Shown here: piece by piece, positions 3,011-63,200 of the stretch | Layout: the number at the start of each line of letters is the position of its first letter | Position numbering within the stretch: the first letter of the stretch is position 1 | Virus record (IMG/VR): IMGVR_UViG_3300045988_147517 | Span: 55,186 to 119,185 of that record | From: a virus | Strand: one strand, 5' to 3' | Length of the DNA stretch: 64,000 nucleotides | Translations under genes and position numbers: made by a program | The notes under the pieces: generated by a model | Databases searched by the model: none | What the model saw: only the letters and a program-made list of their open reading frames with translations | Told to the model about the DNA's origin: nothing

Positions 3011-3203
3011 CTAATATCTCCTGTACTTCATCTTTCACCTGTTGAGCTTCAAGCGTTGAATTTCCATTAAACACTTCTTCAAACACCATTGAGAGTAGGC
3101 AATCTAGTTCGTTAAGCTCTTTGCAAGAATTAACCAAGTCAGACACCACAACTTTTAATTTTTTTCCATTATAAAACATCTCATCATTTACATACTTTAA
3201 CAT
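2976..3203 (-). CDS. hypothetical protein
   Basis: ORF-track ORF 2976..3227 trimmed to ATG 3203, which follows AGGAGG (rc of 3211-3216). Confidence 0.5.
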   Translation of the reverse strand: MLKYVNDEMFYNGKKLKVVVSDLVNSCKELNELDCLLSMVFEEVFNGNSTLEAQQVKDEVQEILDEELYIHRFVR

Positions 3204-3568
3204 TCTTTTACCTCCTGGTTCCAACAATCATAACAAGTATAGCCCAGTCTCATACATTCCACAGATTTATCATCTTCGCCATATACATCTACAATACATG
3301 CAGTAGGATAAAGCCCACTCCCATCATCTTCTAATCTAGCATTCGGGAACTTCTCTAAAAATACATTCATGTAGGTCTTTGGTGGATGTTCTCTGTCCCA
3401 CTTTTCAACAACAGAAACAGCCTCTCGAGGATAATCCTGTTCAAAACTTGCACAATAGATATGTCTTTTATTATTATGTGATTCAAACGGGCACTCAGAA
3501 CAAGATGACGCTTTGCAACATTGTGTCATTCTTCTCTTTATTTTTAAATATTCAACTGCGTTCATCAT
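3197..3568 (-). CDS. hypothetical Cys-rich protein
   Basis: 123-aa ORF with multiple Cys clusters (CCKASSCSECP, CYDC). Confidence 0.6.
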   Translation of the reverse strand: MMNAVEYLKIKRRMTQCCKASSCSECPFESHNNKRHIYCASFEQDYPREAVSVVEKWDREHPPKTYMNVFLEKFPNARLEDDGSGLYPTACIVDVYGEDDKSVECMRLGYTCYDCWNQEVKEC

Positions 3569-3963
3569 TCAGTTACCCCAATCAAATTAAGAAGGTCGTC
3601 AATGTCAATTTCGACGTTATTATAGTCAGTTGGATGACGATGTGATGATTTCATAGTAATATTTTCCGCGTCTAACGTTTCATCTAAAATATCAATCAAA
3701 GAATTTTCTTCATTCTCAAACAATTTATCCTTTAAAAGACCAAATAATTCTTGGTATGGCATTTCTTTTACATCATTTTCTGCTTCAATATATCCAGAGT
3801 AGCTTCCAATTTTCACCACTACCAATACAGCATCTGATAATGGGTGTAAATACCACTGCTCCCAGTAATAACCATCATCGTATCCAAAAAACAAGGCTTT
3901 TTTATTTTGTTTATGTACCTTTAAAAGCGCATCTCTTAATTCATCTGGTGTGTCAATGTTCAC
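3565..3963 (-). CDS. hypothetical protein
   Basis: 132-aa ORF, start/stop overlaps with neighbours. Confidence 0.6.
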   Translation of the reverse strand: MNIDTPDELRDALLKVHKQNKKALFFGYDDGYYWEQWYLHPLSDAVLVVVKIGSYSGYIEAENDVKEMPYQELFGLLKDKLFENEENSLIDILDETLDAENITMKSSHRHPTDYNNVEIDIDDLLNLIGVTE

Positions 3964-4370: not shown

Positions 4371-4686
4371 CTAATCTTTGGCAATGAAACTCCCTACTTC
4401 TATAAGTAGGAGAGGAATTGCCTTCTCCTTTCTTCCTGTAAATAACTCATTCTAGCTTTTAATAATTTTAATTTTTTACAACTTATACCCGTTAGTCTAG
4501 TCAACAAGGGCTTTTCAAGCCCCCACTTCAACAAGACCTATCTTGTAAGTAGTGGGTTATTGACTTTAAATCTCCTTTACCTTTCTTATTTTAACTGGTT
4601 TTCTTTTCTTGGGTCTACGCCTTTCTTTCAAATCTTTTTCAGCTAGGCGCTCTTCTTCTTGTTCCATAATATAATTAAAGTATTCT

Positions 4687-6090: not shown

Positions 6091-6165
6091 TGGTGCGGGG
6101 ACTGGGAATCGAACCCAGTTTTCAGGCGTATAAGACCCGCGCACTAACCGATGTACTATCCCCGT
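6091..6165 (-). tRNA. tRNA-Ile (anticodon UAU), CCA encoded
   Basis: Hand-folded cloverleaf: U8, A14, GG in the D loop, anticodon loop CUUAUAC, T arm CTGGG-TTCGATT-CCCAG, 3' ACCA. Position 1:72 is an A-C mismatch. Confidence 0.75.
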
Positions 6166-6198
6166 ATAAAAGGGAAATACATCCCTTTTTATAAACAT

Positions 6199-6227
6199 AT
6201 TATAACATACTGTTGGCGCTTTGTCAA
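6199..6227 (-). promoter_or_regulatory. sigma-A type promoter upstream of the tRNA
   Basis: -35 TTGACA is rc of 6222-6227; 17-nt spacer; -10 TATAAT is rc of 6199-6204. Confidence 0.6.
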
Positions 6228-6862
6228 TCAGTTTCGCCCGGAATAATATACTCAAACAGTTCTTCACAGTCAGCGCACATAACAGAAATATTTGCTTTTC
6301 CTCTTACAACCGCGCCACATGTTGGACATTGGTAATATGGTCTAGGTTTTCTAGGTTTCTTTGGCTCTTCACCTTCACTTGCGGCTAAATCTGACAATTG
6401 CCTGTTAATATTAAAAACGTCGCTGATATTAAGCGTATCAATAAATTCTATAAATTCGTCTGATGGCGCTGTCTCTGAATAACCAATTCCATCAACCTTA
6501 TTAATAATCAAATCTCTCTTTTCAGCTTTTGCTTTAAACCGCTTATTATGATAGCGGTTACCTCGGGAAGTATCTTTAATATCATTCTCCCAGCAATAAA
6601 TATGCACCATCTCATGCGCCAGTGTAGAAATGATATCATATTTATCAAGGTTTAAATACTCGGCTGTAATGTTTAACTCATAGTATCTTTTCCCACTAAT
6701 ATCAATCCACCGATTTTTTGAAGCCCACCCATAAGCATCTCCACTTACTACTTTCTTACTTTGAATTGTAATAATTACTAGCGGCAATTCACCATCATAA
6801 TATTTTTCGTTTAGAGCGTTATATACTCTTTCTAACTCATTATAAATTTCTGCCAAATTCAT
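6224..6862 (-). CDS. SprT-like zinc metalloprotease with C-terminal zinc ribbon
   Basis: LAHEMVHIY (HExxH) and CPTCG...CADCE. Confidence 0.65.
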   Translation of the reverse strand: MNLAEIYNELERVYNALNEKYYDGELPLVIITIQSKKVVSGDAYGWASKNRWIDISGKRYYELNITAEYLNLDKYDIISTLAHEMVHIYCWENDIKDTSRGNRYHNKRFKAKAEKRDLIINKVDGIGYSETAPSDEFIEFIDTLNISDVFNINRQLSDLAASEGEEPKKPRKPRPYYQCPTCGAVVRGKANISVMCADCEELFEYIIPGETD

Positions 6863-6863
6863 T

Positions 6864-8129
6864 TCATTCGCCTTTCATATCATCAAAATTCCAAGCACCA
6901 TAGGCCGGAGTGGATTCAAAAATACCTTCTGGATACTTTTCACCATCTGCAAGTGGAACAATTTTATCAATATATATTTCATTAAATAAAATTCCTGTTT
7001 TATTTAACGCACTAAATGGAGATATATTCATATCGGCTCGTTTATTAACATGCATAAATACAAAAGCCCTGTCTTTGTTACAAGAATATGTTGAATGTGG
7101 CGCGCCAATGATAGAACTCCCATATATGTTATTATAATATTCTCCCTCTTTATATTCAAATGAATTATCATAAAATGATACGTATTTATCCCCATCAATC
7201 TTCACATATTTCACAAATCTTAATGGGAAATTACAAGGTACTTGTTTTTCAATAGCATTGAGTCTTTTTATCATTATATCCCTTTTCGCGCTATCATTAA
7301 AAAAATAAGAACTGTAAAAATTATCGTCGAATAGGACAAACCTTTCCATTATATTGTCATTTTCTACTGTCCAATATATCTGTTTTCCCAAACAATATGA
7401 GACCAATAAATTATAGTTAATACAATATTTTGTGAAAAAATTTATACAATTAGATTGTCCTTGTTTTTCTTCAAATAATTCCATTGCCCTATTAATATCG
7501 AATGGCTCATCCCGAATTTCTTCAAAAATATCTTCCGATTCTTCACCATACATTCCGCCTATTTGCTCAGATAAGGCATCATAACTTTCGATATTTACAT
7601 TTTTCATAGACAATCCTATTTTATATAACGTTGATGTGGGAATACTATATCCTCTCTGCCTGTATTTTTCCATACGTTTTAAAGATGTAAGCGGATAAGG
7701 TGTCTTTACATTATAATTTAGGCATCGTTTAAGATTATCTGCAATAAAATTATCATCTACGATAAATTTATCTTCATCAAAATCATATAGCCCCATATTA
7801 ATAGTAAAATCAAAACTTTCAAAAATACTTTGTGGAGTAGGATACGCCTTTAAAGTAACCACTTGCACCATCTTATTGCCTCCACAATAATCTTTAAAAC
7901 TGATAGCCCTTTTAGAACACACTCTAAAATTCCCACTAGCCCATGATGACCTTAAAAAAGACTCCATATCTTTTTCTGTTTTAAAATATACATCATAGTC
8001 ATTAATCTCGTTTCCAGTATAAACAGAAGTAATAGCGCCACCAGCAATCATTGCATGGTTCAGTTTTAATAAATCATATAAATCGTCACTCATTTCATCA
8101 AATAGAACTTCTTTTTTATCTTTACTCAT
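6864..8129 (-). CDS. hypothetical protein with a Pol-beta-like nucleotidyltransferase signature
   Basis: IAGGAITSVYTGNEINDYDVYF fits hG[GS]-x9-13-DhDh. Start moved to ATG 8129 (GGAGGAA RBS) from track start 8201. Confidence 0.45.
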   Translation of the reverse strand: MSKDKKEVLFDEMSDDLYDLLKLNHAMIAGGAITSVYTGNEINDYDVYFKTEKDMESFLRSSWASGNFRVCSKRAISFKDYCGGNKMVQVVTLKAYPTPQSIFESFDFTINMGLYDFDEDKFIVDDNFIADNLKRCLNYNVKTPYPLTSLKRMEKYRQRGYSIPTSTLYKIGLSMKNVNIESYDALSEQIGGMYGEESEDIFEEIRDEPFDINRAMELFEEKQGQSNCINFFTKYCINYNLLVSYCLGKQIYWTVENDNIMERFVLFDDNFYSSYFFNDSAKRDIMIKRLNAIEKQVPCNFPLRFVKYVKIDGDKYVSFYDNSFEYKEGEYYNNIYGSSIIGAPHSTYSCNKDRAFVFMHVNKRADMNISPFSALNKTGILFNEIYIDKIVPLADGEKYPEGIFESTPAYGAWNFDDMKGE

Positions 8130-26637: not shown

Positions 26638-26661
26638 TAAAAAAAAAGGCGTTAAGCCTTT
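26638..26661 (-). terminator. rho-independent terminator of the helicase-like gene
   Basis: Stem AAAGGC/GCCTTT (26645-26650 / 26656-26661) plus a 9-nt T-run on the minus strand. Confidence 0.65.
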
Positions 26662-28001
26662 TTTCGAGATTTATTAAAGTAGCGGGATTTTTGGTAGGGC
26701 ACGTAGGCGATTTCTTCATCGTTGAGCCATTGAGTGAAAAGCGTTCGCATACGCAGGGATGGAATGTAGAGGTAAATTTCTTCATTATTTCTTATGGCGC
26801 TTCTCCATACCCATTGAACCATATCAGCCAGCGCGAATTTATCTTGGTCGACGGCAATATTTCTAATTGAAAAAAGTTGTTTAATAAAAGGGTTCATGTA
26901 GCGGTTTACCATGTAGGCGCAATGTGTGCGGTTTCCATATTCGTTTGTCGCTTTAGCATTGAGTGGAACAAAAGCCCTTCTACTAATGCGCGCTGGCTTC
27001 ACTTGCTTATTAAAAGATTTAAAGGTGGTATACATTCGTTGTTTTGGTGGCGCGCTTCTCAGAAAATTAAAGATACATCGGCTTACATCCTCAAGTTCCT
27101 CTGGATGTGAGGCATACCAATTATTACTAAGCGTACTGGAGAACTCCTGATTATTATTTGCTACATAAGGTCGACCAATTTCATTAAGGCTATCACTCTG
27201 GCAAATGTGGATAAGCGGTTTTACATTTTTCTTCCATTCTCTCTCATAGTCTTGGTTAATGGTTGGAACAAAACAATATTGTCCATTTTGGCGCTCTGTG
27301 TGATAATATTCATATGTTATATCATAGAAGCGATAATAGTATGCCTGCATTTGATGTTCAAACATGTAGGTAAGGATAAAAACGTCATTAAAAATATCCT
27401 CTTCGAAAACCTGTACGGGGAACGACCAAAATAAGGCACTATCATTAATATAGTAGAGCAGTCCATTATCGGCCAAATGTTTCATGTGTTGGTAGCGTGA
27501 TAAATCAGCCCATTCTTCTTTTGACCAATTCACTTGAAAATCTGGGTCGATAGATACATATCCTTTGCGAATAAAAGATGCCATATCCTTTATTGTATGA
27601 AGTTGCCTTTCTCTTTCGGTGAAGTTGGATTCGGAATACTTACATAAGTCATATTCATTAATAACGTTTATGACCTCGTCTAGAAATAAGATATAATTCC
27701 CACCTCTTAAGATATCGAGCAACTCTTTGTCTACATAAGAAAAGAGCGCATGTGTACAGACGATATTTTCTCCTTTTGCAAGTAGCGCTTTTAGGTGCCT
27801 TCCCTTGGTTCCAAATTCTTCCTCAGATGGTTGAACAAAATTCTTTGATTCACATTCTTTTATAACCCTATCACATTCGGTTAGGAATGGTGTTACAAAC
27901 ATAATATTGGTATCATTCCCTAACATATTAATATGATGAATGGCGGCACTTGTTTTGCCGCTACCCATCGGAGAGTCAACAACTTTAATTCTTCTTTTCA
28001 T
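26652..28001 (-). CDS. P-loop NTPase, SF2-helicase-like (candidate replication initiator or helicase)
   Basis: Walker A SPMGSGKTS, Walker B LFLDEV, motif-VI-like VWRSAIRN. Confidence 0.6.
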   Translation of the reverse strand: MKRRIKVVDSPMGSGKTSAAIHHINMLGNDTNIMFVTPFLTECDRVIKECESKNFVQPSEEEFGTKGRHLKALLAKGENIVCTHALFSYVDKELLDILRGGNYILFLDEVINVINEYDLCKYSESNFTERERQLHTIKDMASFIRKGYVSIDPDFQVNWSKEEWADLSRYQHMKHLADNGLLYYINDSALFWSFPVQVFEEDIFNDVFILTYMFEHQMQAYYYRFYDITYEYYHTERQNGQYCFVPTINQDYEREWKKNVKPLIHICQSDSLNEIGRPYVANNNQEFSSTLSNNWYASHPEELEDVSRCIFNFLRSAPPKQRMYTTFKSFNKQVKPARISRRAFVPLNAKATNEYGNRTHCAYMVNRYMNPFIKQLFSIRNIAVDQDKFALADMVQWVWRSAIRNNEEIYLYIPSLRMRTLFTQWLNDEEIAYVPYQKSRYFNKSRKKA

Positions 28002-28744: not shown

Positions 28745-30691
28745 ATGAAGAATCGACAATTTTATATAGTAAAACTAAATAGTTCTGATTTAAAGTATTT
28801 CAAATATACTTTAGAGGGGGATTTTGATATTTTTAAAAAGCGCGACCAGATAGCCGCGGTGGCAGATAGTCAGACATTAAGGTTGATTAGAGAACTTACA
28901 AATAAAGATGTAGACTTGGAAGAGATTGAGAAGTTATACAAAAAAAGAGATTGGCTCAAAAAACAGGAGAGCACACAGGCCGCTTCAAATGAAATTGCTT
29001 TTTTGCAACGTAAGATTAATAACGCTATGTTTATTCCAGAATATGTCACAGTCACCATGAGTGGAAATAAACAATATGAGTATTTGTTCGAAAAAGGATT
29101 TGAGCTTATTATAGATGGTAGGCGCATTCATTATAAGCGATTGTCATGTTCGGCAGGGCAGGCTCGTGTTTCTACTGTTGTATTCTGTGATAGTAATATT
29201 ATTGATGAATTGGAGCGTCGATTAAACAACGGACGTGATATGAACTTTAAGATAGCGCCATCTAAATTCAATGCATACTTTGGATTATATACTTCCGCAA
29301 CTAAAGTAGTTAGCGAGCCTAACTTTTGTGTTGTGCCAGACTATGAAAATAATTTGGATGTAGAGGTAAATTATGTAACTGAAACGGATTATGATTCGGA
29401 CGATTTAATTGATACGCGAACCGTCAACTTAGGGTTTAACCGAACTGATGGGATGGGGCTAATAAATTATGAACGCGCCTCTAAATGGGCAGAAGAGTTA
29501 GGGCTAGATTATGTTCCGGCCCAATTTTGCATACGACAATCATTTATTAAGGGAATGTTGTGCACCTTTCCCATTCAAGAGTTTTGTGAGCTTGTTAATT
29601 ATGGTAATTATATCACAAAAGATATTTATGGCGCTGAAATAGATTTGAGGGACTATGATGTTATTTTAACGGAGAGCCAATTTAAATTGTGGGGTGCTTA
29701 TCCAAATCTTGATTATTACAAAGAATGTTGCCATAAAAATAATCTTAAATGGGGTGTAGCTATTTATACCCCTAAGCATGATAAAGATATTATCAAGATG
29801 AACTATCAATTTCTACAAACATTAGATTTATCAGACGAAGATATTGAAAATTTATGCTCAATGTTTGTTAATTGGATTCAGGGTGTAACTTGTGACAACT
29901 TAGGATACACGCTCCTCTATTTAATTGGAGAGGGTAAAACTGAAGAAGAAGTTCGGGCCTACATGCGTAGCCCGGATAACTATTGGATTAAATCTTTAAT
30001 TATGGAGCCGGAGTTAATTAAAGATAGGTATATCAAACAGAAGATATATCGCCTAATTAAAAAGCGCATTCAAGACGGTTGCCTAGGAGAGATTATTTTA
30101 AATGGCAACTTTCAGGTACTCGTAAGCGACCCATTTGGATTTATGCAACATGTATGCGGGTTAGAGCCAACTGGGTTACTTGGCGCTGATGAGTATTACT
30201 CTAACTATTGGAATGAGCGGGATGTAAAAGTGGTGGATGGTATGCGTTCCCCCTTGACATATCGCTCCGAACATGTTAAAATGAAGTTAGTGAGAAACAG
30301 CCGTATAGATTATTGGTATCGTTATATGTATACGGGCGTTGTTCTTAATTACCATGGACACGATGTAATGTGTTTTGGTGGCGCGGATTTTGATTATGAT
30401 ATTTTAGCCACTACTGATTGTCCAGAGGTGGTTAATGGTATATATCCAAATGAGTTACCTGTCTATTATGAGCCACCCAAACCAGCGAAGATAGTGCCTA
30501 CAAAAGAGGATTTGTTTAAATCAGACACATTCAGTTTTGGTTCTATCATTGGTAGCATTACAAATAAAGGTTCTAGCGGATATGCATTACTTTCCGACAT
30601 TGAATATATGTATGGGAAGAATAGTATAGAGTATGTTACTACGCTAAATAGATTAAAAATGTCTTGCAAGTTACAGAGCGCGCAAATTGAT
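28745..30691 (+). CDS. YonO/RdRP-like single-subunit RNA polymerase, exon 1
   Basis: VVDGMRSPLTYRSEH ... FGGADFDYDIL resembles the RnPxxHpgD ... GGDxDGD catalytic-barrel signature of QDE-1/RDR/YonO-type polymerases. The exon ends ...SAQID at a U, followed by an in-frame TAA at the start of the intron. Confidence 0.65.
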
Positions 30692-30965
30692 TAATGTTGG
30701 TCACTTCATAGGGAAACCTATGTCGAAACGTGGTGAACACTCAGAGAGTGGGTATACATATATTGTATGCTATCGGGGAAAGCTAAAGCCATAAGGTATG
30801 CCAATCCCGAGCCGAACACCTATTGGAGGTGGAGGTGTAACGACTATCCGCAAGGAGTAGCGCCATAGCGATATGGTGGCGAAGTGCCACGCCCCTAACG
30901 TAAAGCCGAGGGTGAAGATATAGTCTAGTCCCCTAACAAATATCGGGAAACCGAGGGTATGAACG
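30692..30965 (+). mobile_element. group I intron (274 nt, no ORF)
   Basis: Contains the canonical core GAAGATATAGTC and AACGACTATCCG; ends in G. Splicing joins ...SAQID to KAKIGREVKG... in frame. Confidence 0.75.
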
Positions 30966-31799
30966 AAAGCGAAAATAGGAAGAGAAGTAAAAGGAATTCC
31001 TAAAATATGGGTCAAACGCCAGAAAATAGAAGATGACGACGATGAACAAACGATTAAATATAAGGAGCGGATGAATTATTTATGTCTAGACAGGCATCCT
31101 TATTTTTTTATATATCGTTATGCTGATACCAGAAAGAAATATCGCAAGCACATTGACACTTATCAACATTGGTGCAAGACTTCATTTAGATTGTCTCTAG
31201 AGGAATTATTTAAGGTAGAAAATAAGACACAGCAACAAAAGGATTTTTTAGCTGGATATTTCCGTTATATGCCTGTTATTGATAGCAATAGTACGATGAA
31301 TCGTATTTGCCATTATATTGAAGGGTTGAATATGAATGTACGTAGCCACCTTAAAGTAAAAGAAGGGCACGACATGCATAAATTATTTATGCCTGATAAT
31401 ATTGAATGGAATGAAGAGCGCTACAATAATGTGGTAGAAGCCTATAAGCGTTATTGCAAGGAGTGCACAAAAATGAATTCTCTTGGCGCTTCTAATTTTG
31501 ATTTTGAGACAACGAAGGATTATGATTTTTACGCTTCTATGTTTATAGGAATGTTGTATTCCTATGTCAATGAGGTATGCAGTAATGTGTACGAAGCCAT
31601 TACATATTTGGCGCATTATATGTATGTGGAAAAAGATAGCGCCAATAAGGAAATGCTATGGCAAACATATGGGTATGAAATATATAGTATGATTAAGGAA
31701 AGAAATAGCGGTTACATTATGTTTCCACTAGAAGATGAAGATGGTGATATAGAGTATTTAAATAAAAGGTATTCTATGCAGGAGGTTTGTATTGATTGA
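30966..31799 (+). CDS. YonO/RdRP-like RNA polymerase, exon 2
   Basis: The frame is open from 30963. The junction restores QID-KAKIG, similar to the (A/S)xDxxKxG motif downstream of DxDGD in RdRP-type enzymes. Confidence 0.6.
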   Translation, partial: KAKIGREVKGIPKIWVKRQKIEDDDDEQTIKYKERMNYLCLDRHPYFFIYRYADTRKKYRKHIDTYQHWCKTSFRLSLEELFKVENKTQQQKDFLAGYFRYMPVIDSNSTMNRICHYIEGLNMNVRSHLKVKEGHDMHKLFMPDNIEWNEERYNNVVEAYKRYCKECTKMNSLGASNFDFETTKDYDFYASMFIGMLYSYVNEVCSNVYEAITYLAHYMYVEKDSANKEMLWQTYGYEIYSMIKERNSGYIMFPLEDEDGDIEYLNKRYSMQEVCID

Positions 31800-32946: not shown

Positions 32947-33022
32947 TGGGGTATAGCCAAGTCGGTAAGGCACCAGACTTTGACTCTGGGATGCGTAGGT
33001 TCGAGTCCTTCTGCCCCAGCCA
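32947..33022 (+). tRNA. tRNA-Gln (anticodon UUG), CCA encoded
   Basis: Acceptor TGGGGTA/TGCCCCA, anticodon arm CCAGA-CTTTGAC-TCTGG, T loop TTCGAGT, 3' GCCA. Confidence 0.8.
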
Positions 33023-33196: not shown

Positions 33197-33270
33197 GCCA
33201 CTATAGCATAACGGTAGTGCGAATGATTTGTAATCATTTTATCGGGGTTCGACTCCTCGTAGTGGCTCCA
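33197..33270 (+). tRNA. tRNA-Thr (anticodon UGU), CCA encoded
   Basis: Acceptor GCCACTA/TAGTGGC, anticodon arm AATGA-TTTGTAA-TCATT, T loop TTCGACT, 3' TCCA. Confidence 0.8.
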
Positions 33271-59179: not shown

Positions 59180-59938
59180 ATGGCTATAAGTAGAGAGTAT
59201 AAGGTTAAGATAAAGGCTACTGTTGACCCTAGTGAAATTTCTAAACAAATAGAGGCCTTAAGTAAAAATAGTAAAATAAAATTTGATACTGGCGGTATTG
59301 ATGCGGTTGGTAAAAGTGTTGGAAATACGAGCAAACAAGTTAAAGGATTAGGAACTCTAGTAGATGGAGTGTTTGGAAAATTTAACTTATGGTATGGAAT
59401 TGCTCAACTTTCTCACCAAATCTATAGTGCAATTGGAGACGTTGTAACCAATACGATAAAACTAGATACTGCAATGACAGGTTTAGCAAAAGTAAGCGAT
59501 ATGTCAAAACAGGATTTAACAGCGTTTGCTAAATCTGCTGGCGAAGCAGGGGTTGAAATAGGAAAAACAACAACTCAGATGATTGACGCGGCTACAGTGT
59601 TTGCACAGGCTGGATGGAGTGACCCGGGCGAATTGCAACAACTCGCCACTATGGCTGGTATGTTTACTAATATCGCAGACACTCAGACGAGTACGGCAGA
59701 ATCCGCAGAATTTTTAATTGCTACTATGAAGGCATTTAATTTGACAGCCGATGACACAGAGCATATTATTGATGCGGTTAATGAAGTATCAAATAAATAC
59801 GCAGTAAGTTCGGGTGACCTTGCATCATCTGTTGGTAGAGTTGCTTCTACACTTGCTATTTCTGGTACAACGCTAGAACAGACCTTAGGGTTAATGACCG
59901 GGGCGACAGAGATTGTCAGAAATCCGGGAAAAGTGGCT
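59180..59938 (+). CDS. tail tape measure protein, exon 1
   Basis: Typical TMP N-terminal region; ends ...RNPGKVA, followed by an in-frame TAA at the start of the intron. Confidence 0.7.
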
Positions 59939-60241
59939 TAATTTTAGGTCGGATATATGGTAACATATATTCAAAAACACTCTAATTGACGGGAAACCCC
60001 TTAGAGCTTTATCAACCAACCTATGATGGTGACATACATAGGGGCTTGACGTAATGGTTAAGGTATGGTAAAATAGATAAAGATTGGGCAATCCGCAACC
60101 AAGCATCTCAATGAGATGAAGGCTCAACGACTATCCGAGAGGAGTACATATCAAGTGATGTGGAAATGGGTGTCCCCTCACATGAGGGTGAAGATATAGT
60201 CTAGTCCCCTAACAAATATCGGGAAACCGAGGGTAGAAACG
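59939..60241 (+). mobile_element. group I intron (303 nt, no ORF), paralogue of 30692-30965
   Basis: A 52-nt block at 60184-60235 is identical to 30908-30959 (GAGGGTGAAGATATAGTCTAGTCCCCTAACAAATATCGGGAAACCGAGGGTA). It shares AACGACTATCCG, the 5' TAAT start and the 3' AACG end. Confidence 0.75.
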
Positions 60242-63200
60242 AATGGTTTAAAAACAATTTCATTGAGGTTACAAGGAATGACAGAGGCCGCTGATGGTTC
60301 GGTAGAATCAGTGGATGGCTTGTCATCAAAAATGCAAGAAGAATTTAGTCAAATTGGTGTAAGTATAACAGATGCTAACGGTCAAATTCGAAGCACTTAC
60401 GATATATTAACTGATATAGGTGCACAATGGCCAAACCTAACACAGAATCAGAAAGCATATTACGCAGAATTGGCCGCGGGCAAAAACCAAGCGAACATTT
60501 TTATTGCGTTAATGGATAATATCGGCACCGCTGTAGCCGCTACAGCAACAGCTTATGATAGCGCTGGTTCTGCCGCAGAAGAAAATGCTAAACGAATGGA
60601 CTCTATTCAAGGTCATATTGAAAAATTTCAAGCCGCATGGGAAAAGTTTACGACATCTTTTGCCGACAGTGATTTAATAAAGAATATTATTGATATGGGA
60701 ACTGCGCTAGTTGAATTTGGAACTACTGATACCGGGAAAGCCGTACTTGGCTTAACGGCTATCACTGGTGCTTTTATAAAACTTAAATCTGTGTTTTCTG
60801 GGATAAAAGCTTTGTCGTCCGGCACATCATTACTTGAATCTTTATTTGGCGCTGGTAGTGCCGTTTCAACTGCTAAGAATGCAGAAAAAGCTATTGAAGG
60901 TGTTGGCAAGACAGCAAAGAATACTATGAGAGATGCCGCTGATGCGGGAGATACACTTTTTGACGTATTTGCTAATATTAGAAGAGGTGCAGACAATTCA
61001 GGAAAAGCGGTAGAGAGTGTAGCGGGTAATACGAAGAACTTAGCAAAAGCCGCTGGTGAAACCGCAGAAGAAGTTGCTAAAGTAGGAGCAGAGTCTACAA
61101 AAGCGGCTACAAGTGGTGGAATGCTTTCGAAAGCATTAACTGCTATAGGCGGCCCTACAACTTTAGCTATTGGCGCGTCTGTTTTAGCTATTGGTGGCAT
61201 GGTTTATGCAATGGATAGGGCATCAAAGGCCGCTGGCGAACATCAAGATGCTTTGGTTGAAGATGCTCAAAATACAAAAAAAGCATACGATAATACAACA
61301 AAAGCAATTGAAACAAACGATAAAAGAATCGCTCAGTTAAAAGAAACTATTGCGGGGATTCAAGAAAAGGGAGAATTGACCCTTGTTGATGAACAAAATT
61401 TAAAAAATGCTCAACGTGAATTATCACAGTTAGAATTACAACAAGATGGTTTACGAAAAAAACAAAAGCGTCAGCAAGAAGAGAATCAAAGGGCAAATGA
61501 GAGGGCTTTAAAGGAAACTTCTAAGATTAGTGCTTTTAGTGGGCTTGGTTCTTTAACCGGAAAAGATGTGACTATTCCTCAAGAAGCTGATGAAATTATC
61601 AAAGCAATGAGTCAACTTCAAGCATCTTGGACTGAGACGGGAGAAATTGGGAAAAGAGTTAATGAGGGAACCTTTAAAAAACAACAGGAAGAACTTGAGA
61701 ATACTCGCCAACGTATGATTGAATTACGGGAAGGGTTTGAAGTTGGAAGTGAAGGATACGATTTGCTTACTTCTAAAATTTCTAACATAGATAATTATTT
61801 AGATAGAACCGCTCCTCTCATGGAAAGAAACGTAGAAGCCGCAAAGAAATATGGAAACGCTTTAGTCCAAATGGGAGATGAATCGAAATCCGTAAAAGAT
61901 ATTGCAACCAATTTAAACGACCTCACTTCTGCTCATGCGTCTGGCGTACTAAGCACTGAAAATTATATATCAGAACTTAGAAATGGAATAGACCTAATGG
62001 CTTCAACAACTGAAGTAGCGGGATACAAGATAAAAGATATCTTGAATATGTCTGACCGAGAATTTCAAAACTTATCTTCATCTGAACGTGAACAAGTTCT
62101 TGCGGCACAAACTGCGTGGACTATGTATTCAGACACCTTACAGACAACATTAGAAAATGCTCAGGTTGCATATGATTCGACTGGAGAAAGTGGCGTAGAA
62201 AGTTTCAACACTATAAATGATTCAGCTAGAGCGGCACTGGATGTTATTACTGAACAAGAGGGGTTAACAGGAAGTATCGAAGAAGGTTGGTCTGGTGGTA
62301 GCCAAGCCGCTAGAGATTACGCAAATAATTTAAGTAATGTTATTCGAGAAATGGATAGTCTTAGTGGCGCTCAAGATTTGGTGTCTGAAAGCTCAGACTT
62401 AATGCATCAAATCATGTCCGATAATATCAATGGAATGAGTACCGAAGTATGGGAAGGAACAGAAGCAGGAAAACAAGCTTTGGCGGATTTTAGTGCTGGC
62501 GCACAGACTAGTTTACAAGAATTACAAGATAGTAATGATACTGCTTGGCAAACATTTAAATCTACTATTGAAGAAAGCACAAGTGGTGCATACGATGCTC
62601 TTATTGACGAAAATGGAAGGCTACGTGATGACATTCAACTAACAGGCGACCAATCTGTAGATGTTTTTAGTGCTTTACAAAGTTTGCTAGAGAGCAATGT
62701 TCCCGGAGCCGCTGAGTTTGCGGCGGGTGCTTTGGCTACAATTGGTCAGACCGCTACAGATAATACTGCTCATCAAGATGCTTTGAATAATTCTATTCAG
62801 TCAACTGGTAGTATGTCAGAGTCTGCGGCAAGTGTCTCTACTGGTGCATGGGGTGGAACAGCCGCCGCTGTTGATAATACTAAAAACAAAACTGGATTAT
62901 TGGGCGGTGCATTTAGTACGGCTGGTTCACAAGGTAGTAGTGCTGGTACTAATATTGCTGGAAAATTTGGAGAAGCTTCTGGTCAAATTGATGGCGCAAA
63001 AGGTAGTACAGACCAACTATCTGGTTCTATGCAAGGTGTTGGTTCTAGTGCTGATGGCGCAAAAGGTAGCGTTGGTGGATTATCTGATGCTATTAATGCC
63101 GTTCCAAGATTTGTTGAAGTCGTCTTTAATGTTGTACAAAATGTAACAAAAAGTATAAAAGAAGTTTTCTCTGGTCAAAAAGCAACTGGCGATGACTATA

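Follow-up and report, generated by a model that had tools for sequence, protein, structure and literature searches.

The window analysed here, a 64,000-nt stretch of viral DNA, contains a locus that gene callers divide into two ORFs (649 aa and 242 aa). This poses the question whether the locus comprises two neighbouring genes or a single gene that is interrupted by an element removed at the RNA level. We propose that the 274 nt at 30692-30965 are, with high probability, a functional self-splicing group I intron, phage IA2-like and devoid of an endonuclease gene, which resides in the YonO-like single-subunit RNA polymerase gene of an uncultured SPbeta-like gut phage. An ORF-less group I intron had been suggested at this place by an initial annotation of the DNA. 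This main reading is supported by a full-model alignment to the Rfam family RF00028, by a canonical core that covaries, and by a conserved motif that is restored on excision.

The interrupted polymerase gene

Joining 28745-30691 to 30966-31799 (Table 1) yields a product of 926 aa, which runs without a gap across the junction. Over its whole length, this product matches phrog_8308 (E 7e-151). It scores 32.7 bits against the Pfam family RdRP (PF05183; cut-off 23.8), and tblastn relates it to yonO of SPbeta (E 1e-22), with many further phage homologues matching as well. In an AlphaFold model (pLDDT 74), the only fold matches in the PDB are RDR2 and QDE-1 (Foldseek E 7e-11 to 6e-6); pLDDT is below 50 over residues 534-569, a stretch that takes in the catalytic loop. 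Searching the PDB with the single protein sequence returned no match, and a profile search gave only a marginal stretch of RDR2, far from the junction. Judged by homology and modelled fold, the host gene product is a YonO-like single-subunit two-barrel RNA polymerase. The "polymerase" of the initial annotation holds in this qualified sense, namely as a YonO-like enzyme and not as a DNA polymerase.

Upstream of the polymerase gene and divergent from it lies a 449-aa ORF (26652-28001, minus strand) with a YonV_C domain (precomputed Pfam match of the source contig), which fits an SPbeta-like gene neighbourhood. The window also carries tRNA genes at 6094-6165 (minus strand), 32947-33019 and 33197-33267 (both plus strand), the latter two closely following the polymerase operon.

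In Bacillus phage BUCT082, the homologous protein of 924 aa is uninterrupted. It aligns with the spliced protein end-to-end and gap-free at 50% identity, and 20 identical residues span the junction (KLQSAQID followed by KAKIGREVKGIP). At the DNA level, intron-less alleles (81% aa identity) read GCGCAAATTGAT directly followed by AAAGCGAAGATTGG. At the same place, the window reads GCGCAAATTGAT, then 274 nt, then AAAGCGAAAATAGG. Against these alleles, 30692 and 30965 are exact nucleotide boundaries. The insert follows a T (30691) and ends in a G (30965), the base expected at the 3' splice site of a group I intron. Combined with the intron-less alleles, these two requirements leave 30692-30965 as the sole solution. 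The comparison with intron-less homologues that the initial annotation had recommended thus confirms the insertion site, with exact excision at both 50% and 81% aa identity.

The sequence features on which the initial annotation was built held up as well. The segment, described there as GC-rich, has a GC content of 0.485, versus 0.363 and 0.336 in the flanking exons and 0.34 in the window. Two hallmark core strings had been pointed out, and both are present above chance expectation. GAAGATATAGTC lies at 30914-30925 and occurs three times in the window when one mismatch is allowed (0.25 expected by chance), with exact copies in the polymerase intron and in a second intron (at 60190). AACGACTATCCG lies at 30839-30850 and occurs twice at up to one mismatch (0.07 expected), the other exact copy being at 60126, likewise in the second intron. 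The U-G pair thought possible between the base before the intron and a guide-like GGTCA can indeed be formed, and the terminal G is in place. The intron opens with a TAA (30692-30694) that is in frame with the 649-codon ORF at 28745-30694, so that an unspliced RNA would give only a 649-aa fragment, the truncation foreseen in the annotation. The homing endonuclease of mobile group I introns, already reported as missing, is indeed absent: all sense ORFs inside the intron are 35 aa or shorter, and the longest ORF touching it is antisense (30770-31015, 81 aa, TTG start). A scan of 30400-31300 revealed no terminator-like site, and no promoter-like site inside the intron.

The intron separates D649 from K650 within QSAQIDKAKIG (Q644-G654), an 11-residue run that is invariant in 16 homologues; the alignment spans 48-81% identity to the window's polymerase. 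In the AlphaFold model, this site falls at the end of a predicted long helix (628-652). The three aspartates of the catalytic DFDYD (D548, D550 and D552) are invariant in the same alignment. The initial annotation had placed the intron next to the catalytic region of a polymerase gene. The gene was correctly named, but DFDYD lies 97 codons upstream, and the intron interrupts a separate invariant motif, QSAQID/KAKIG. Eukaryotic RdRPs may carry a motif similar to QSAQIDKAKIG, AVDFxKTG, after DxDGD.

Secondary structure and covariance-model score

The insert can be folded into P1, P2, P3, P4, P5/P5a, P6/P6a, P7, P7.1, P7.2, P8 and P9/P9b, with two further hairpins, here called X and Y (Table 1). 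Covariation was assessed in nine related introns from other loci, from which endonuclease ORFs were cut out before alignment with MAFFT without structural input. Over seven helices (P2, P3, P4, P6, P7, P9 and P9b), 98.6% of cells pair, and double changes are seen in 22 of the 34 pairs. None of 500 shuffled controls reached the observed pairing and covariation values, and sliding the partner strand by 1-3 columns reduced pairing to 29-44% of cells. P3 retains 7/7 pairs in all nine introns through seven different helix sequences, with four pairs double-changed. All four pairs of P9b are double-changed, and P9 keeps its three pairs wherever it is present. In P7, GACUAU/AUAGUC of the window becomes GAUCAU/AUGAUC in the related locus L079, a double change in two pairs. 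The group I core, consisting of P3, P4, P6 and P7 with the P3/P7 pseudoknot, is hence present and covaries.

Table 1. Features of the polymerase gene and its intron (window coordinates, RNA letters for intron helices).
Feature	Position	Strand	Remarks
Polymerase exon 1, codons 1-649	28745..30691	+	unspliced stop is TAA 30692-30694
Catalytic DFDYD (DxDxD) codons	30386..30400	+	aa 548-552; upstream of the intron
Group I intron without ORF	30692..30965	+	274 nt, IA2-like (P7.1 and P7.2 present); RF00028 full-model match, exact excision versus intron-less alleles, covariation
P1 5' strand, last four exon bases UGAU	30688..30691	+	ends in splice-site U; pairs with GUCA 30700-30703
Internal guide GGUCA, P1 3' strand	30699..30703	+	G30700 pairs with splice-site U30691
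P2 hairpin CAUAGG GAAA CCUAUG	30707..30722	+	5/5 counted pairs double-changed (nine introns); in MFE fold
P3 5' strand CGUGGUG	30729..30735	+	pairs with 30885-30891
Hairpins X (30738-30742/30746-30750) and Y (30752-30758/30764-30770)	30738..30770	+	between P3 and P4, splitting the usual J3/4
P4 (30773-30778/30805-30810)	30773..30810	+	encloses P5 and P5a; 6/6 pairs in nine introns, four double-changed
P6 and P6a hairpin	30811..30836	+	P6 3/3 pairs in nine introns; site of the HNH ORF in relative L007
P7 5' strand GACUAU	30842..30847	+	pairs with 30920-30925; pseudoknot with P3
P7.1 (CC GCAA GG, 30848-30855) and P7.2 (GCCAUA GCGA UAUGGU, 30862-30877)	30848..30877	+	peripheral helices, in MFE fold
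P3 3' strand UGCCACG	30885..30891	+	partner of 30729-30735
P8 hairpin (putative)	30893..30912	+	read from sequence and by analogy with second intron; poorly aligned in relatives, uncounted
J8/7 and P7 3' strand (UGAAGAUAUAGUC)	30913..30925	+	most conserved core string
P9 (30930-30932/30955-30957), P9b (30943-30946/30951-30954, GAAA loop), tail to terminal G30965	30930..30965	+	
Polymerase exon 2, codons 650-926	30966..31799	+	open from first base; gap-free versus BUCT082

At the 5' splice site, P1 is made up of U-A, G-C, A-U and the wobble pair U30691.G30700. It has four exon pairs only, and it covaries with the exon at the same site: the strands are UCGAU/GUCG in L079, L099 and L101 and UUGGAU/GUCCAA in L004, and L007 has UGAU/GUCA as in the window. 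No convincing P10 helix could be drawn. In P7, G30842-C30925 with the bulged C30841 fits the usual guanosine-binding site of group I introns, which we take, from their established anatomy, to be its putative position here. The extra helices P7.1 and P7.2, located between P7 and the 3' strand of P3, place the intron in subgroup IA (IA2-like). For this label we rely on the Michel-Westhof classification rather than on a classifier. L007 shows a compensating extra pair in P7.1 and has GCCGUA/UACGGU in P7.2.

Hairpins X and Y pair in 99% of cells over ten introns, with 7 of 10 pairs double-changed, a count that leans towards the structure because it was made on a hand-cut alignment. Both were recovered independently by the single-sequence MFE fold. 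No description of this layout (P3.1/P3.2) was found in the literature searched.

The full RF00028 model (1-253) aligns to 30692-30947 with 41.4 bits under permissive thresholds (E-values of 5.2e-9 in a 901-nt search and 3.7e-7 in the window). The curated gathering score of this family is 50 bits, so that the polymerase intron formally falls outside it and a default scan misses it. At gathering scores, Rfam lists one group I intron (59929-60224, 65.1 bits) and three tRNAs in the window, and 30692-30965 is absent from this list. The initial annotation had proposed an RF00028 scan and had regarded the lack of a covariance-model hit as speaking against a group I intron. There is a match with permissive thresholds and none by default; the verdict hinges on the threshold used. 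The reduced score is plausibly caused by hairpins X and Y, since the model forces mismatched P3 pairs. A counterpoint is that two relatives with the same architecture, including X and Y, score 63 and 60 bits and thus pass the threshold. At E <=0.01, no Rfam match was obtained in c-st, MT835481, CB473P1 or BUCT082, nor at E up to 0.1 in L007 or L010, though the introns of the latter two are visible by reading the sequences; large ORFs and truncation at contig ends put such introns beyond the reach of the model.

Three further possibilities, namely an intein, a group II intron or a programmed frameshift, were discarded, as the insert is out of frame, begins with a stop codon and has a group I core.

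Related introns, splicing and rival readings

The polymerase intron belongs to a site-specific lineage, with an HNH-bearing relative at the same site. In this relative (L007), the polymerase is 83% identical to that of the window and is split at the same site by the same intron, whose P6 loop houses a 151-aa HNH_3 ORF (Pfam) in L007. Compared with the window's polymerase intron, the L007 intron core shows 82-90% identity, versus 74% for the flanking exon, which fits either horizontal movement or stronger constraint. The window copy has either lost an endonuclease gene or never gained one. As it has none, it cannot home by itself. Its transfer could come about through recombination or with the help of an endonuclease that a relative supplies.

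The spliced protein was compared by tblastn with 116 related polymerase loci, partly redundant, of which 105 are uninterrupted (~920 aa) and 11 interrupted. Bar one 4-nt frameshift (L101), the breaks occupy two places only, inside or beside DxDxD or between codons 649 and 650. The DxDxD site is broken in c-st, MT835481, L079, L080, L081, L099, L108 and L109, to which L010 is added. The 649/650 site is broken in the window's phage, Enterocloster phage CB473P1, L079, L099 and L101, to which L007 is added. L007 and L010 appear as a single HSP in tblastn because of contig ends. The genome scan was biased against copies interrupted at 649/650, since its pattern spanned the junction. All inserts read at 649/650 are group I introns of the same class, some ORF-less and some with ORFs in P5 or P6. 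At DxDxD, four inserts were checked, those of L108, c-st and L010 by reading and that of L079 by Rfam (35.8 bits).

The DxDxD motif is split (e.g. GSD/FDGD or DMD/GD) by related group I introns with or without HNH ORFs in L010 (4655-5375), L108 (4642-5029), L002 (Clostridium phage c-st, about 3151-3524), L003, L079, L080, L081, L099 and L109. In its GenBank record, the pieces of the split c-st polymerase figure as individual proteins, among them 'YonO-homolog N-ter only' and 'C-ter only'. In L101, a 4-nt frame offset at DxDxD (4644-4649) comes without an insert and may be a sequencing or assembly error or a true frameshift.

The window harbours a second ORF-less group I intron (59939-60241, plus strand, 303 nt, RF00028 65.1 bits) in its tape-measure gene, with exon 1 at 59180-59938 and exon 2 starting at 60242 and open to the window end (at least 1506 aa). 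Both introns share an identical 52-nt 3' core, an AACG 3' end and a UAAU start with an in-frame TAA. Overall they are 61% identical; the second one differs from the polymerase intron in the absence of X and Y, in a long extension of P5 and in a score that exceeds the gathering score. In the close relatives L025 and L032 (IMG/VR UViG_3300045988_118521 and _129962), the tape-measure gene contains two group I introns separated only by a 22-nt mini-exon (AATGGATTAAAAACTATAAGCT), whereas the window has just the first.

Related introns also occur at other loci. In L026 (about 3537-3820) and L031, IMG/VR contigs of ~97 kb, one splits GSDFD/ID. The exon upstream of it (...GYRIPTQGLSS...TGSDFD) may encode the beta-prime-type barrel of a further two-barrel RNA polymerase; a PHROGs search with the interrupted gene of L026 gave no match. 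Among cultured phages, the sole near-identical DNA match of the window region is in Staphylococcus phage CIFT_MFB_MRSA28 (L011, PV017447, 1559-2600), where 50 nt of the intron 3' core are matched at 94%. This core lies upstream of a terminase (GpA_ATPase) exon and after an ORF of 310 aa that bears a treble-clef zinc finger / CapR domain, and the locus looks like an unannotated terminase intron. Fragments of the polymerase intron core have matches in 291 records from phages of Staphylococcus, Enterococcus, Bacillus, Listeria and other hosts, but coverage of the whole intron reaches 46% at most in any cultured-phage record.

The splicing route that we propose takes its steps from established group I chemistry. 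The polymerase gene would be transcribed as one unit, and the intron would fold into its P3-P9 core. The exon end UGAU would pair with the guide GUCA to form P1, placing the U30691.G30700 wobble at the splice site. Free guanosine, held in P7 by G30842-C30925 beside the bulged C30841, would attack after U30691, and the freed 3'-OH of the exon would in turn attack after the terminal G30965. The exons would be ligated as GAU/AAA, with a predicted junction of GCGCAAAUUGAU followed by AAAGCGAAAAUAGG, to encode a polymerase of 926 aa in which QSAQIDKAKIG is intact. The TAA that makes up intron bases 1-3 would halt ribosomes at the exon-intron border and so keep them out of the intron. Splicing activity is something we infer from the conservation of the structure. 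Searches of JGI metagenome contigs and of IMG/VR for the exact ligated junction gave no match, and the intron 5' end had two chance matches in metagenome contigs, without an intron core.

Could the insert be something other than an intron, be it an assembly artefact, an intergenic spacer or a small insertion of a different kind that separates two genes? The two ORFs reported by gene callers would agree with this, as would the similar splits annotated as separate genes in phages c-st and CB473P1. However, one continuous protein is encoded by 105 of the 116 related loci, excising exactly 274 nt restores a continuous polymerase, and the segment both matches the covariance model and covaries. Furthermore, the window's phage is present in independent assemblies (ENA, 119 kb; Logan; IMG/VR), and the independent IMG/VR contig has the intron at 99.6% identity. 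We therefore give this explanation next to no weight. It is also improbable, in our view, that the insert is a group I intron that has decayed and lost the ability to splice, which would leave the polymerase gene as a pseudogene or expressed in two pieces. Such decay would be in keeping with an Rfam score under the gathering score and with the missing endonuclease gene, a stage at which introns are expected to decay, as well as with the position of the first ATG of exon 2 (31071, 35 codons in). Yet all core helices are intact and covary, the flanking exon codons still encode the invariant motif exactly, and the frame that splicing requires is open in exon 2 from the first base onwards. A polypeptide started at 31071 would lack KAKIG, and the low score plausibly stems from the X/Y insertion and the P3 mismatches it causes in the model, though relatives with X and Y pass the threshold.

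A different question is whether a splicing intron might mainly serve another purpose. Its role could be regulatory, with splicing setting the ratio of full-length to truncated polymerase, or defensive, with the occupied site shielding the gene from the HNH enzymes of introns in co-infecting relatives. The in-frame TAA at the start of the intron and the HNH-bearing version in L007 would suit such roles. So would the intron endonuclease gp210 of phage PhiPA3, from an RNA polymerase beta-subunit gene, which inhibits co-infecting PhiKZ in an HNH-motif-dependent manner (PMC11620839). On the other hand, the second intron of the window likewise has an early in-frame stop, as do most of the relatives read at both polymerase sites, and we consider a mainly regulatory or defensive role rather unlikely. 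Only as a tentative suggestion, and one that we doubt, do we offer a broader scenario: a single structural class of group I introns may have repeatedly colonised two invariant motifs of YonO-like polymerases (DxDxD and QSAQID/KAKIG), maybe as weapons and shields between related gut and soil phages. Endonuclease-bearing copies would then cut the gene of intron-less co-infecting relatives, much as PhiPA3 gp210 acts on PhiKZ, and ORF-less copies would persist by virtue of an uncuttable site.

Comparison with known phage introns

Read as a functional self-splicing intron, the element is an ordinary phage mobile element, and it sits in a gene family for which no earlier report was found: our literature searches returned none of introns in YonO-like polymerase genes. 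Its main value lies in annotation and in marking a critical motif. The polymerase of the window's phage should be annotated as one 926-aa protein instead of two ORFs. The same correction applies to the published genomes of Clostridium phage c-st and Enterocloster phage CB473P1, in which the gene is annotated as separate proteins. For detection, the locus illustrates that genuine phage group I introns can score under Rfam's gathering score. With regard to function, it flags QSAQIDKAKIG as a functionally critical motif in a little-studied enzyme family. Finally, the 649/650 and DxDxD sites offer natural intron-less, ORF-less and endonuclease-bearing alleles with which to study how introns home and how phages compete.

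It is a classic observation that essential phage genes carry group I introns in their conserved motifs. We compared the polymerase intron with the phage IA2 introns of T4 (td, nrdB and nrdD), Staphylococcus phage Twort (orf142), SPO1 (DNA polymerase) and SPbeta (bnrdE and bnrdF). It shares with them a P1-P9 core with P7.1 and P7.2 and the J8/7-P7 string GAAGAUAUAGUC, as well as splicing after a U paired with G, a terminal G and an early in-frame stop. As a class, both also have in common a location in a conserved motif of an essential gene and an optional endonuclease ORF in a peripheral loop. What sets the polymerase intron apart from those listed is its host gene, a YonO-like RNA polymerase.

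Hairpins X and Y between P3 and P4, which the polymerase intron has, are absent from the Rfam consensus. The layout is not unique: Enterococcus phage BC611 has it in its terminase intron. In this phage (L147, AB712291, about 6140-7130), the X/Y-type intron splits the terminase large-subunit gene, and its P5 loop holds an ORF for a SegB-like endonuclease. In the record, the N- and C-terminal pieces of the terminase are annotated separately.

With respect to the host enzyme, comparable cases are the group I introns in RNA polymerase beta-subunit genes of PhiKZ-like phages, namely the gp210 intron of PhiPA3 (PMC11620839) and gp273/274 of 201phi2-1 (PMC2919709). In common with these, a mobile intron is inserted into a conserved part of a phage two-barrel RNA polymerase gene. 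An HNH-type endonuclease is found in the PhiPA3 intron and in the relative L007, whereas the window copy lacks it. The PhiKZ-like introns interrupt beta-subunit genes of split multisubunit enzymes in Pseudomonas phages; here, in contrast, the interrupted gene encodes a single-polypeptide YonO/RdRP-like enzyme of a Firmicute-type phage.
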